Virus record (IMG/VR): IMGVR_UViG_3300032282_005588
Location: 1 to 64,000 of that record
Reading direction: 5' to 3' (one strand)
DNA: 64,000 bases
From: a virus
Position numbers and translations under genes: made by a program. A model generated the notes under the pieces. The model did not search any database, had not been told where the DNA came from, and saw only the letters and a program-made list of their open reading frames with translations. Within the stretch, counting starts at the first letter, position 1; each line of letters begins with the position of its first letter. This document shows positions 60,151 to 64,000 of this stretch, one piece after another.

Positions 60151-60393
60151 ATGCTTGTAGAGTGTATAGATATATCAAACAGACCTGAAGACATACCAAC
60201 ATCAATGTGGTTAAAGAAAAAGGTTTACACTGTGGTGAGTAGAACATTTCATCCAATTCATAATTATTACTCACTTCAACTAGAAGAAGTACATCCACCC
60301 CCACCTTATATTGGATATAAGGAATCAAGATTTAAACCTATAGAAGATATTAGTATAATAGAATTAATAGAAGAAAAAATAGAAACAATATGA
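60151..60393 (+). CDS. hypothetical protein
   Basis: VECID...YTV...SRF pattern. Confidence 0.55.
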   Translation: MLVECIDISNRPEDIPTSMWLKKKVYTVVSRTFHPIHNYYSLQLEEVHPPPPYIGYKESRFKPIEDISIIELIEEKIETI

Positions 60394-60698
60394 AGAATAA
60401 ACTAGATAAACAATATACAGACCTGCTCCAAGATATCTTAGATAATGGAGTAAAAAAACAAACCAGAAATGGTGAAGTGTTATCAATATTCGGTAGACAA
60501 ATTCGTCACAACATGAAAGATGGTTTCCCACTTCTTACAACTAAGAAGATGGCTTGGAAATCAATTGTAACTGAGTTACTCTGGTTTCTCCGTGGTTCAA
60601 CTCGAGGTGATGAGTTAGTAAGGCAAGGGTGTAATATTTGGGTAGGGGATATGTATGCTAATTATTTAAAAGAGTATGAAAAACATAAAGAAAATTAA
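60390..60698 (+). CDS. thyA: thymidylate synthase, N-terminal piece
   Basis: QY..LL..IL..G, TR.G, FPLLTTKK, ELLWFLRG.T, NIW. Confidence 0.9.
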   Translation: MKNKLDKQYTDLLQDILDNGVKKQTRNGEVLSIFGRQIRHNMKDGFPLLTTKKMAWKSIVTELLWFLRGSTRGDELVRQGCNIWVGDMYANYLKEYEKHKEN

Positions 60699-60738
60699 AA
60701 ATAAATGGGTTTTTTAAGTAAAAGTACAATATTTATAA

Positions 60739-60826
60739 ATGTAGAGTTGCGGCTACATGTAAGATATTTAATTAACTAAATGCTAATGGTGAGTAGAGTA
60801 CCGCAATCTCGAAAGCCTTAGTATTT
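60739..60826 (+). ncRNA. putative two-hairpin kissing-loop RNA in the leader of the HNH gene
   Basis: ATGTAG/CTACAT stem with loop AGTTGCGG; AAATGCTAA/TTAGTATTT stem with loop CCGCAAT, complementary to GTTGCGG. Confidence 0.5.
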
Positions 60827-60834
60827 TTTATTTT

Positions 60835-61689
60835 ATGAATTACCTAAAAATTTACGAACAATTAATTGATAAAGCTAAGAGAGAAGATAGAGATTACATA
60901 AGTAATAAAATCTACGAAAGACACCACATACTTCCTAAATGTATGGGAGGGGATGGGAAAGTTAATCAATGGAGAACTCACCCCAATATAGTAATTTTAA
61001 CTCCTCGAGAACATTATTTAGCTCACACTCTATTATGTGAGATATATCCTGAAAATTCTAAATTAAAGTTTGCATTATGGGCTATGTCTAATCAATTAGG
61101 AGAAAACAGAAAATATAAAATATGTTCTAGACAGTATGAAAGAGTGAGAGAAAACTATGTAAAACTAGTAAGAGGAGTACCTAAGACTGATGAGCATAAA
61201 ATAAAGTTAAGTGAGGCATTAAAAGGAAGGGAAAGAGAGGAATTTACTGAATTACACAAAATTAATATCAGTAAAAATATTAAAGGAATTAAAAAATCAA
61301 AAGAACATAGAAAAAATCTCTCTAAATCCAAAAGCATTCCTGTATTTCAATATACTTTAGACGGTGTGTTTTTAAAACAATGGGAATCTGCCAAAAAAGC
61401 AGGAAATATATTAAATATAGACCCTGGAGATATTACAGGTTGTAGAAGAGGAGTAAAAAAGAGTGCTGGGGGATTTCTTTGGAAAGAAAATAAGATAGAA
61501 GTTAAACCCTACAAACATAATAACTCATCTAATATATTGCAGTATACTCTCGAAGGAGAGTTTATACAAGAATTTCAAAGTATATCTAAAGCTTCCAAAA
61601 TCTTAAAACTCAATCCCTCAGGAATATCTAATTGTGCTAATGGAAGATCTAAATATTCTGGTGGGTTTATTTGGAGATATAAAAAATAG
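60835..61689 (+). CDS. HNH homing endonuclease with NUMOD3/NUMOD1-like DNA-binding repeats
   Basis: YERHHILPKCMGG...LTPREH..AH; HK.K.S repeats; twice QYTL.G.F...S...A......I..C.G..K..GGF.W. Confidence 0.9.
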   Translation: MNYLKIYEQLIDKAKREDRDYISNKIYERHHILPKCMGGDGKVNQWRTHPNIVILTPREHYLAHTLLCEIYPENSKLKFALWAMSNQLGENRKYKICSRQYERVRENYVKLVRGVPKTDEHKIKLSEALKGREREEFTELHKINISKNIKGIKKSKEHRKNLSKSKSIPVFQYTLDGVFLKQWESAKKAGNILNIDPGDITGCRRGVKKSAGGFLWKENKIEVKPYKHNNSSNILQYTLEGEFIQEFQSISKASKILKLNPSGISNCANGRSKYSGGFIWRYKK

Positions 61690-61715
61690 TTATTATTTTT
61701 AATAAATTAAAAGTT

Positions 61716-62591
61716 ATGAAATTTAAAAAAGAAGATTTACACCCAGATGGGAGACCATTCACCAAAGAAGAATTTATCAACAAAATAAAAACCGATGGTG
61801 AGTTTGCCAAGAGGTGGGGTGAATTAGGACCTGTGTATGGTAAGCAATGGAGACAATGGAGTACTCATAAAACTGTAGTAGTAGGGCATAATGGAAATCA
61901 TAATGAATTTGGGACAATTGTTATAGACCAAATCCAAAACCTAATCAACGACCTTAAAACAAACCCAGACTCAAGACGACTAATGGTTTCAGCTTGGAAT
62001 GTAGGCGAATTAGACCAATGCGTGCTTCCACCTTGTCATTATGGATTTCAAGTTTATACAAGAGAGTTGAGTTTAAGTGAAAGAACTTTTTGGATTATGT
62101 CCAACAGACCTGAACAATTAGGGAGTCAAAATTATTTAGACGGAGATAGGCAAGGTATGAAATCAACTGATTATTATGGAGTACCAACCAGAGCAATCTC
62201 TTTAATGTATAATACCCGAAGTCAAGATGTTCCATTAGGTACACCATTTAATATATCATCATATGCTCTATTGTTAGAAATTATTGCGAAGATGGTTAAT
62301 ATGGTTCCTGAAGAGTTGATTACTAATATGGGTGATTGTCATATCTATCTAAACCAAATTGATGGGATTAAGGAACAATTAACAAGAGAACCATATCCAC
62401 TACCTAAATTGAATATTAATACAGAATGGTGGCCAACAGAAGGTGGTTCATGTGGTGAAGGTCCTTTAGATGTTCAAGCAGTACTAGATGGTTTTTCTAG
62501 TGATTCTTTTGCAAGTTGTTTAATTGAAGAAGATATTCAGTTATATAATTATAAAAGTCATCCGGCAATCAAAATGCCTTTATCAAATTAA
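61716..62591 (+). CDS. thyA: thymidylate synthase, C-terminal catalytic piece
   Basis: GELGPVYGKQWR, DQI, NPDSRR, LPPCH, RSQDVPLG.PFN, GDCHIY, SHPAIK.PLSN. Confidence 0.93.
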   Translation: MKFKKEDLHPDGRPFTKEEFINKIKTDGEFAKRWGELGPVYGKQWRQWSTHKTVVVGHNGNHNEFGTIVIDQIQNLINDLKTNPDSRRLMVSAWNVGELDQCVLPPCHYGFQVYTRELSLSERTFWIMSNRPEQLGSQNYLDGDRQGMKSTDYYGVPTRAISLMYNTRSQDVPLGTPFNISSYALLLEIIAKMVNMVPEELITNMGDCHIYLNQIDGIKEQLTREPYPLPKLNINTEWWPTEGGSCGEGPLDVQAVLDGFSSDSFASCLIEEDIQLYNYKSHPAIKMPLSN

Positions 62592-62603
62592 TAAATAAAA
62601 ATT

Positions 62604-63167
62604 ATGAAATCAAATTTAACAGAAAAATTATCGTCTATTTGCGGGAGTGCAGATAAGACTTATGGTTGTAATGATATTGAATCAATAACACAACTAACAG
62701 AAGAGCAACGTATTCAAGTAGAAGCAGAATTAATTAACCATTTTGGGTTTGATAAAATTATATGGATGCAACTTCCCTCAGGTCTTACAGAAGACAAAAA
62801 AACAACAATAGTTGCAGAAACTAGAAAAATATCAGATTCAGACGATCCAACTCACAAACATAAAGTAGGATATATTTACACTTTAAACTTTATTCCAAAA
62901 ATGTATGAATCGGGAGAAATGTATAAACCAGTAAAAGATGGTTGTGTGTTTGCTCCTATCATCTTCGATCCAGTAACTTTTACGCCTACACAAAGTATTA
63001 CATTAACTTGGTCACCTGAATTTCCTCAAGACATTAATGCACCAGAAAGAACTCTTGAAGACGAAAAGCAAATGATTCGTGATATGTTAGAAAAGGTATT
63101 GGACAATCCTGAAGAGTATAGACCGGTTGGATATACAGGATGTTTACTAAGGTATGTGGCAGTCTAA
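62604..63167 (+). CDS. hypothetical protein
   Basis: 187 aa between thyA-end copies 1 and 2. Confidence 0.65.
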   Translation: MKSNLTEKLSSICGSADKTYGCNDIESITQLTEEQRIQVEAELINHFGFDKIIWMQLPSGLTEDKKTTIVAETRKISDSDDPTHKHKVGYIYTLNFIPKMYESGEMYKPVKDGCVFAPIIFDPVTFTPTQSITLTWSPEFPQDINAPERTLEDEKQMIRDMLEKVLDNPEEYRPVGYTGCLLRYVAV

Positions 63168-63218
63168 TCACACCCAACAATTAAAGCGCCTTTAAGTAAC
63201 TGATGCATATTTATTAAC

Positions 63219-63767
63219 ATGATAAAATTAATTGATTTGTTACGTGAAGTGAAAGCTGCAATCACTGATGATATGGTTATTGTACTAGACAAAGGGCCTA
63301 CTTTGATATTATATAATAATAAAGAAGATGGCGTTTTAGGTTCGATAAATGTTTATAATAATGAGGTAACAGGTGTAGCTGCTGAAAAAGGTTTTGGGCC
63401 TATCATGTATGAATTAGGTATGGCTATGGTGTATCCAAAGCCATTACAATCAGATCGACGAGGTAATACTACAGAAGCAGCTGCAAATATTTGGAATAGG
63501 TTTATAGACGGTATCAACCCAAAAATAAAAGTGGAGAAAGTTAAACCAAGTGATAAGGATTATATGTCAGTATGGCCTGAGACTGGAGAGGCTATTGACC
63601 CTTACTATTTAGATGGTTTTATTAACTATAAGTTTTACAATCCTGATAAATCAGTCCTCGATAAGTTAATTAAGAAAGGAGATATTATACCAAAAGACAA
63701 ACAAAAGGATATAATTAAGAGAGCTAATGATTTTTATCAAAGAAAAGTTAATCATCCCTACAACTAA
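63219..63767 (+). CDS. GNAT-like protein with MIKLIDLLRE leader
   Basis: AEKGFGPIMYE (acetyl-CoA-binding-like), SDR..T.AA..IW. Confidence 0.5.
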   Translation: MIKLIDLLREVKAAITDDMVIVLDKGPTLILYNNKEDGVLGSINVYNNEVTGVAAEKGFGPIMYELGMAMVYPKPLQSDRRGNTTEAAANIWNRFIDGINPKIKVEKVKPSDKDYMSVWPETGEAIDPYYLDGFINYKFYNPDKSVLDKLIKKGDIIPKDKQKDIIKRANDFYQRKVNHPYN

Positions 63768-63817
63768 TCACACCCAGCAATTAAAGCACCTTTATCAAAT
63801 TAACCATATTTATTAAC

Positions 63818-64000
63818 ATGATAAGATTAATTGATTTATTGAGTGAATCTCAGAATATACCTGAAGTATTATATCATTTTACATTACCTAAATATTTTGT
63901 AAATATGATAAAAACAAATACCATTAAGGCAGATCCTAAATTTAAACAAATATCATTCACTTCAGATCCTAATTTATGGGCTTTTAGAGAATTTAATGAT
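63818..64000 (+). CDS. partial protein with MIRLIDLLSE leader, possible ADP-ribosyltransferase-like fold
   Basis: VLYHFT...ISFT; runs off the window end. Confidence 0.45.
   Translation, partial: MIRLIDLLSESQNIPEVLYHFTLPKYFVNMIKTNTIKADPKFKQISFTSDPNLWAFREFND

Follow-up and report, generated by a model that had tools for sequence, protein, structure and literature searches.

What leaves several non-coding copies of a gene's 3′ end strung out behind that gene, each in front of a different neighbour? The question is raised by a stretch of viral DNA (the window, 64,000 nt in full), which forms the first 64 kb of the 80,082-bp IMG/VR virus record IMGVR_UViG_3300032282_005588 and shares its coordinates. 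Here the thymidylate synthase gene thyA is followed by an array of small cargo genes punctuated by copies of the last codons of thyA, which we call tails. Our answer, to which we give a probability of roughly 0.6 and which derives from sequence comparison, is that genes were gained repeatedly where thyA meets its downstream neighbour, that the tail copies are the scars of these gains, and that the scars then acted as homology patches for the exchange of cassettes.

The record has an estimated completeness of 50%, and the nearest cultured relative of the virus is Flavobacterium phage vB_FspM_immuto (hereafter immuto), a 160-kb myovirus. A scan of IMG/VR for the thyA tail gave 119 loci; 112 real thyA ends were compared, and the next gene was compared at 103 loci. 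The tail search patterns were fixed on the right end of the tail. L-numbers (L008, L080 and so on) denote the contigs compared, L126 being immuto isolate 2-6A.

Tail copies and the alleles they came from

The array runs in the order thyA, gene 1, scar 2 with gene 2, scar 3 with gene 3 and a 69-codon open reading frame (ORF; orf69), and scar 4 with gene 5, and ends at a strand switch with two tRNA genes. This is the order in the source assembly, on which it rests because, in contigs from other lakes, the repeats interrupt the assembly graph. An asterisk in the peptides marks the stop codon.

62556..62591, + strand: resident, translated thyA tail SHPAIKMPLSN*, a divergent 'IKM' allele
62604..63167, + strand: cargo gene 1, 187 aa, no known family (no Pfam or PHROG match)
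63168-63203, + strand: tail copy 2, SHPTIKAPLSN*, AGT-AAC-TGA variant, non-coding, directly after the TAA of gene 1
63206..63248, + strand: spacer CATATTTATTAAC and leader B codons (MIKLIDLLRE) of gene 2, a 91% repeat of 63805-63847 (family D16)
63219..63767, + strand: cargo gene 2, 182 aa, leader B, body of no known family
63768-63803, + strand: tail copy 3, SHPAIKAPLSN*, non-coding, directly after the TAA of gene 2
63805..63847, + strand: spacer and leader B codons (MIRLIDLLSE) of gene 3
63818..64000 in the window, running to 64249 in the record, + strand: cargo gene 3, 143 aa, leader B
64269-64478, beyond the window: orf69, 69 codons, ending ...ITPNN* inside copy 4 in the +1 frame
64462-64497, beyond the window, + strand: tail copy 4, preceded by CAA as in real thyA
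64524-65027, beyond the window: cargo gene 5, 167 aa, leader A MKKTELQQIIREEISK, weak DUF6934 match, last gene of the array

An initial sequence-only reading had described non-coding tail copies after each of the two genes that follow thyA, and these are indeed present at 63168 and 63768, each directly after a TAA stop codon. A degenerate tail pattern matches three times in the 64 kb (0.00 expected from 100 shuffles), and extending the search beyond the window, as had been proposed, revealed the fourth tail. Copies 2 and 3 are both followed, as described, by the same sequence CATATTTATTAACATGATAA, a 20-mer unique to these two sites in the window, and copy 4 is followed by a related spacer and then gene 5. 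The interval of exactly 600 bp that had been noted is correct for one spacing, but successive tails are 612, 600 and 694 nt apart, so 600 is not a period. There is no plausible ORF containing copy 2 or copy 3, the only overlap being a 42-codon antisense ORF at copy 2, and orf69 enters copy 4 out of the thyA frame.

The differences between the four tail versions are nearly all synonymous, full TCA/AGT serine switches among them, in line with the first observation. Nine of 36 bases separate the resident tail from copy 3, and a single residue is altered (M/A); between copies 2 and 3 there are seven base differences, again with a single altered residue (T/A) and with a full serine switch among them. 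The proposal that the copies were once the coding ends of other thyA alleles is well borne out by working genes. Copy 3 is identical, at 36/36 bases, to the real thyA end of immuto 2-6A, where CAA (Gln) precedes it. The 36 terminal bases are nearly invariant in the 112 real ends, with TCA and AGT alternating freely at the last serine, and the TCA/AGT and AAT/AAC/TAA/TGA variants of the copies all occur in those ends; real alleles with AGT AAC, for example, are found in L014, L043 and L060. Chimeric tails, arising from crossovers inside tails, were also considered and set aside as unprovable, since all half-combinations exist among real alleles.

The correspondence extends past the tail. Copy 3 with its spacer and leader B is 91% identical over 78 nt to positions 366-443 of L080, where thyA is intact, and the copy-2 block likewise matches the real thyA end, spacer and leader-B gene of L080. 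For the copy-4 block (tail, spacer and leader A), identity to the intact-thyA junctions of L028 and L034 is 86-88% over 100-116 nt; the L028 junction, a real thyA end with spacer and leader, accounts for the match of 88% over 116 nt. What this phage and its relatives have in common is thus the tail, the spacer and the first 10-20 codons of the next gene. The sequence-only reading had pictured modules of tail, promoter and cargo gene; tail, spacer and next-gene start do lie behind intact thyA in relatives, but the whole cargo gene is not shared, and the promoter fell away, as promoter-like sites in the array occur only at chance level (19 against 20.1 expected, with no terminators in the array). 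On this comparative evidence, a scar with the gene behind it is a former thyA junction.

The resident tail is itself a divergent allele with canonical tails downstream, a pattern that would fit a foreign end now in use and an original end displaced downstream, with either tail possibly the older. IKM-type tails are also resident in L026 and L104, both of which have canonical copies downstream.

Local tandem duplication of a tail-plus-gene unit within this genome, followed by divergence, would also yield a head-to-tail array with units as similar in length as these, and the repeat does take in the 10 opening codons of both gene 2 and gene 3. However, these two genes are alike over their first 12 residues only, and the cargo bodies are unrelated. 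Synonymous changes, moreover, have preserved the thyA peptide in the copies, which are closer to foreign real alleles than to the resident tail, and other phages carry these cassettes one at a time or in a different order. We therefore give such a duplication next to no chance of being the origin of the array.

The thyA junction in related phages

The arrangement behind thyA is not fixed among relatives, and the hotspot that had been proposed at the thyA 3′ junction is evident: the next gene differs in most of the 103 loci, extra full or partial tails are found in about 16 distinct contigs (L011, L026, L027 with four copies, L028, L034, L037 with three, L054/L094, L057, L058 with four, L067, L084, L096, L104, L120 and immuto), and the immuto isolates differ from each other at this place. 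A 15-nt seed taken from the right end of the tail gave 14 matches that extend to 24-45 nt, all of them 244-1906 nt downstream of thyA and on the same strand, while 0/7 opposite-strand control matches extend past 20 nt.

The immuto isolates provide the clearest view of the junction. The identity of isolates 2-6A and 3-5A is 95.8% as far as the thyA stop codon and 99% from gene g51 on, and between these points they carry unrelated inserts of 741 and 282 nt, respectively. The 2-6A insert consists of g48, a 26-nt tail remnant, g49 and g50; the 3-5A insert consists of ORF82 and a 24-nt tail remnant, which lies directly before the g51 ATG. A g51 homologue is found directly behind an intact thyA in L008, L045, L083 and L089, which thus represent an 'empty site'. 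Similarly, L028 and L058 have in common thyA (78%) and the segment from tail 2 onward (86%), with unrelated cargo between the tails, and ORF82 of immuto 3-5A is homologous to this L058 cargo and is again followed by a tail. In both pairs, the insertions, deletions and replacements that separate the relatives map to the repeated tail at the borders of ORFans. Homologues of gene 1 stand directly behind an intact thyA in L010, L011, L024 and L063, and a tail copy follows in L067 and L011; the tail variant and the next gene after gene 1 differ between this phage, L067 and L011.

Lake metagenomes point the same way for natural populations. A 1609-nt lake contig joins position 64250 to 64524 and hence has neither orf69 nor copy 4; gene 5 starts 1 nt after the gene 3 stop codon in it, with no tail between them. 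In three lake metagenomes (97% identity), contigs of the gene-2 cassette (63206-63795) have 4-7 times the depth of contigs with genes 1, 3 and 5 and end exactly at the repeat borders, which suggests that this cassette sits in several genomic contexts. One further lake contig places gene 2 after gene 3, through a joint from 64266 back to 63219 that has a depth of 7.6 in one run; this is too weak to argue for a circle and could equally reflect another gene order. Given these variant contigs, the depth differences and the breaks at repeats, the content and order of the cassettes are not fixed in nature. Uncovered stretches in the aligned metagenome contigs and runs with a low share do not enter into this evidence.

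Because copies 2 and 3 start at the same base directly after a TAA, the sequence-only reading had suggested a precise, attB-like mechanism, and this did not hold up. All copies run to the same right end, which includes the stop codon, but on the left they begin at positions between -12 and +21, counted from the Ser codon. The copies are accordingly 15 nt long (L026), 24-26 nt (immuto 2-6A and 3-5A, L058, L037/L084 and L120), 36 nt or up to 48 nt, with up to 12 more thyA bases included in L026 and L104, and many of them begin at the Gln/Glu codon or at the Ser codon. The TAA before copies 2 and 3 sits where real thyA has a CAA or GAA codon, so the shared base after the stop codon need not mean a cut site.

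Site-specific integration, in which the thyA end would serve as an attB-like site, perhaps as a secondary site for this phage's own Xer/IntI-like enzyme, has some points in its favour. That tyrosine recombinase is encoded 8 kb upstream, beside a hairpin-bounded, integron-like cassette array at 51.6-54.7 kb; copies 2 and 3 share their first base; and TAAC is present at the ends of copies 2-4. However, most real thyA ends have no TAAC, the left ends vary as described, and no inverted repeats or hairpins were found around the thyA tails. In the two complete immuto genomes, which display the pattern, searches that were positive for their controls found neither a tyrosine nor a serine recombinase (PF00589, PF00239), nor a homologue of this phage's enzyme. 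We consider site-specific integration very unlikely. A link between the thyA array and the array at 51.6-54.7 kb was rejected on the same grounds, namely the absence of hairpins here and of the enzyme from immuto.

The upstream sides of the joints are also diverse. Cargo ORFs end in all three frames, within or before the tail copy. Their stop codon is a TAA at the Gln/Glu codon position in the gene 1 family, gene 2, the ...PFGR* family of L058/L027 and L037. A +1-frame stop inside the tail (...IT[PS]NN*) is found in six contigs, namely this phage, L026, L028, L058, L067 and L104. The cargo ORF of L096 reads through the tail in the +2 frame, and cargo ORFs in L067, L027 and L058, as well as immuto g48, are fused to the tail in frame and use its own stop codon. 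On sequence grounds, the joints suggest that tightly packed genes were joined at or within their ends, and not at one crossover point.

Two loci illustrate further states of the tail. In L067 (2088-3901), thyA is an N-terminal fragment fused to other sequence, the gene 1 N-terminus is duplicated, two tail copies are left, and a 54-codon NUMOD-like remnant runs in frame to the end of a tail (...HPKIEAPLSN*); the locus gives the impression of accumulated debris from rearrangements. On the reverse strand of L027 (oriented 1871-2596), a 241-codon ORF with a calcineurin-type phosphoesterase-like start ends ...KYASVKTPLSN*, so that a decayed thyA tail is now its C-terminus.

The gene after thyA usually starts 0-7 nt past the thyA stop codon (in most of the 103 loci), and the thyA end is therefore that gene's only upstream leader. 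This raises the possibility that the copies are kept mainly for a function in cis, as translation-initiation leaders or as another RNA or DNA signal, and that they are duplicated regulatory modules. The survival of the right-hand 15-26 nt in shortened or decayed copies and the great uniformity of internal copies across phages would agree with such a function. On the other hand, the array has no promoter above chance, no terminator and no fold; an Rfam search over thyA and the array found no intron or other RNA, the only hits being two minus-strand tRNAs beyond the array. Copies in L011, L027, L037, L054 and L084 have decayed through indels and replacements, search patterns anchored on the right end bias the apparent conservation, and the lake variant just described dispenses with a tail before gene 5. 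We regard a function in cis as an unlikely main explanation; it would account for the retention of the copies and not for their origin, and is compatible with their being scars of gene gain.

How genes may be gained and exchanged

The scar reading can be put as a sequence of steps. The last 36-45 bases of thyA are almost invariant in a very wide set of AT-rich aquatic phages, and the DNA past the stop codon is unrelated between them, so in mixed infections the thyA end would be the last homology before heterology. In a first step, a piece from another phage, comprising its thyA end and its own neighbouring gene or genes, would be joined in. The left crossover would be homologous and lie inside thyA, and the right join, non-homologous or guided by a few bases of homology, would fall within the recipient's last 15-48 thyA bases. 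This would leave thyA intact and push the old thyA end downstream, still attached to its old neighbour. The old end would be kept because it is the only upstream leader of that neighbour, which would set a minimum length for the scar, and a maximum would follow because longer duplications are unstable and lost by recombination.

In a second step, for which the comparisons above provide part of the basis, cargo lying between two tails, or between a tail and a conserved N-terminal leader, would be swapped, deleted, stacked or transferred as a cassette by homologous recombination through patches of 36-115 nt. The logic is the same as that of promoter-early stem-loop (PeSL) shuffling in T4-type phages. 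The genes were thus most likely slotted in by ordinary recombination, with no dedicated enzyme. The process would be a form of recombination-driven modular shuffling in which the displaced coding end of a core gene makes up the joint. Breaks made by homing endonucleases in or beside thyA probably raise its rate, and thyA is in fact split in this phage:

60390..60698, + strand: N-terminal piece of thyA (Pfam Thymidylat_synt, profile positions 1-82, E 6e-26)
60835..61689, + strand: HNH/NUMOD homing endonuclease gene splitting thyA (Pfam I-HmuI_NUMOD-like and NUMOD1; PHROG 655, E 3e-40)
61716..62591, + strand: C-terminal piece of thyA (Pfam Thymidylat_synt, profile positions 81-265, E 3e-57)

The two pieces (60390-62591) are separately startable ORFs parted by the endonuclease gene, and no group I intron was found in thyA by Rfam (E <= 0.01). 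GIY-YIG genes split thyA in L096 and L104 at a site similar to that in this phage.

These endonucleases could play a larger part if gene capture were driven by breaks. A homing endonuclease would cut the recipient near its thyA end, repair would copy the donor's thyA end and neighbouring gene and re-anneal at the recipient's tail, and tail-flanked cassettes would hitchhike on homing, leaving scars that start near the cut. The HNH endonuclease that splits thyA here and the GIY-YIG or HNH genes that split it in L096 and L104 would fit this, as would HNH- or GIY-YIG-like ORFs directly after thyA in L078/L093 and L036 (recognized by N-terminal motifs only) and the NUMOD-like remnant fused in frame to a tail in L067. 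A preferred break point would likewise suit the narrow spread of left ends and the repeated TAA/CAA position. However, no nuclease domain was found by Pfam or PHROGs in genes 1, 2, 3, orf69 or 5, the resident endonuclease lies about 900 nt upstream of the tail, the left ends still vary by 33 nt, and the immuto isolates show the pattern with an unsplit thyA. Break-driven capture overlaps with the scar reading, as it changes the trigger and not the outcome, and we think it rather unlikely to be the main explanation.

Several points weigh against the reading of the tails as scars of ordinary recombination. At least four cassettes that are unrelated to one another (those of the gene 1 family, gene 2, the ...PFGR* family and L037, as above) have a cargo ORF with its TAA exactly one codon before the Ser. 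Random joining would predict less regularity, and either selection or a preferred break point could lie behind it. The left ends fall in a narrow span of 33 nt; selection would explain it, but a nuclease acting near the thyA end would also produce it. The internal copies are so uniform that their DNA or RNA could itself be under selection, or that they could have spread recently from a single source. The sole candidate for a recombination gene is a weak RecA/KaiC-like ATPase at 68813-69673. Finally, all recombination events are deduced by comparison, and much of the material consists of metagenome contigs, which can be chimeric at repeats.

Cargo proteins, their leaders and what the locus may mean

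The cargo itself offers few clues to function. By Pfam and PHROGs, genes 1, 2, 3, orf69 and 5 belong to no known family, except for the weak DUF6934 match of gene 5. No close relatives of gene 2 were confirmed in IMG/VR, and the ESM Atlas returned unnamed viral clusters only. An AlphaFold2 model of gene 1, built with six homologues, has a mean predicted local distance difference test score of 39.

More can be said about the N-termini. Two leaders head unrelated small proteins near thyA: leader A, MKKSELxQIIREEIxxxLxE, and leader B, MI[KR]L[IK]DLLxE. In this array they occupy 63219-63248, 63818-63847 and 64524-64583, and genes 1 and orf69 have none; elsewhere they occur in L104 (3478-5931), L027, L028, L034, L037, L057, L080 and L084. 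Twenty leader-bearing ORFs have a mean column identity of 16%, and Pfam found nothing useful in these proteins. Pairwise comparison of leader A codons gives 218 synonymous against 92 non-synonymous differences in codons 1-14, and 15 against 249 in codons 21-25; the synonymous excess in the leader indicates that the peptide itself is constrained. Leaders are also swapped between bodies, as the body of gene 5, which carries leader A, is homologous to a leader-B gene of L080.

Both leaders close with L-x-E, and in T4 the rule for prohead-protease cleavage sites is L/I-x-E. A T4 gp21-type prohead protease is present in immuto (Peptidase_S77, E 7e-36), and none was found in the present half-complete record. 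Beside the immuto protease, the N-termini of small head-module proteins and of an acidic scaffold-like protein resemble the leaders: MKKSQIVKAVQEVLEE; MSNKDLLKQAIAE. Presumably these N-termini also bear a short resemblance to the capsid-targeting signals (CTS) of T4. These similarities suggest that the leaders mimic the termini of head-core proteins. As a lead only, and by analogy, the leaders would fit capsid-targeting signals like those of T4 internal proteins. The head module around the Peptidase_S77 gene of immuto 2-6A occupies L126 142-363, 365-1447 and 2413-3465, and one immuto protein beside the protease contains ...HFIAEAR... and ends ...SLKDLL, a short resemblance to both leaders.

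Several neighbouring features deserve mention. The motif ACATTAACATYATAATAA occurs on the + strand 20-30 nt before start codons, with five matches in the window (54754, 57380, 57923, 59346 and 59715) against 0.23 expected and several more at 66-75 kb (families D2, D5 and D9); we take it as a probable phage-specific promoter, and it has a partial likeness to the 20-mer that follows copies 2 and 3. Gene 5 is followed by a G-rich non-coding stretch (65028-65200) and then by the two minus-strand tRNA genes (65617-66084), a region that is 100-fold deeper in lake metagenomes and has many alternative joints (skips of 215-308 nt). At 67037-68090 and 68813-68947, proteins carry tandem 57-75-nt repeats encoding RGRKP-type basic motifs (AT-hook-like), and the weak RecA/KaiC-like ATPase that adjoins these is possibly a recombination protein.

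A literature search on thyA-end duplications in phages returned nothing specific, and the closest known systems each match the array in part. PeSL cassettes of the T4-type phages RB49 and phi1 are ORFans in hyperplastic regions flanked by conserved sequences of about 100 nt (Arbiol et al. 2010, PMC2839356; PMC4122927). Insertions, deletions and replacements between close relatives map to these elements through general phage recombination, with no integrase, and their shuffling yields mini-circles (PMC2839356). As in the thyA array, conserved repeats stand at ORFan borders, the indels of relatives map there, and the element carries the start of the downstream gene. However, a PeSL consists of a strong sigma-70 early promoter and a stem-loop terminator, neither of which was found in the thyA array, whose repeat is the displaced coding end of a core gene, sometimes with a spacer and an N-terminal leader. 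The thyA array is, furthermore, anchored at one junction, and mini-circles like those of PeSLs would be hypothetical in its case.

Integrase-made accretion arrays, such as tRNA and tmRNA islands, resemble it in their serial 3′-end copies of a target gene, each with different cargo, while the gene stays intact. In those arrays the copies begin at the integrase's fixed crossover point, beside half att sites, whereas the thyA copies have variable left ends and occur in genomes that lack an integrase (immuto). Integrons, and this phage's own integron-like array, likewise stack one-gene cassettes at a fixed anchor, but in the thyA array there are neither attC-like folded sites nor a recombinase alongside, and the crossover is not constant. 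In the Allomyces macrogynus mitochondrial atp6 element, which Paquin, Laforest and Lang are said to have described in 1994 and which reportedly encodes its own endonuclease, an incoming foreign 3′ end takes over and the original one is left further downstream, no longer coding, as we propose here; the cargo genes in the window, however, have no nuclease domain.

The internal-protein (IP) loci of T-even phages come closest in content. Like the thyA junction, they are hotspots with one to several unrelated small genes that have in common only a short N-terminal leader; the leaders here are under peptide-level constraint, and the related isolate immuto encodes a T4-type prohead protease. On the other hand, the leader sequences here are unlike the T4 CTS, genes 1 and orf69 have no leader, and a capsid role is predicted only. 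We know of no counterpart in these loci to the punctuation by thyA ends. PMC12373910 describes the T-even IP loci as polymorphic (citing Repoila et al. 1994), and the CTS is described in PMC3012670.

Gene gain that does not wreck neighbouring genes is usually inferred from mosaic boundaries that retain no trace of the event, whereas here each event left a datable scar. As the scar is an allele of the coding end of an essential gene and can be matched to donors, the order of events, the junctions and later exchanges can be read directly. The last homologous stretch of a core gene would thus be a third kind of joint, besides PeSLs and site-specific sites such as those of integrons. The pattern's presence in the cultured immuto isolates, on Flavobacterium sp. 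LMO8, makes crosses and inverse PCR possible. If the leaders are capsid-targeting signals, the locus provides a candidate list of injected proteins in an environmentally abundant phage group. We put forward tentatively, and at well below even odds, that the thyA end is a recombinase-free landing pad for T4-like phages of Flavobacteriia, stocked mainly with proteins that are packaged in the head and injected. If so, any gene between two thyA ends could be passed to any phage with thyA, by homologous exchange or as small circles, and the locus would be a community-wide exchange market for early-acting counter-defence proteins, with a transfer logic of its own compared with the IP loci of T-even phages.

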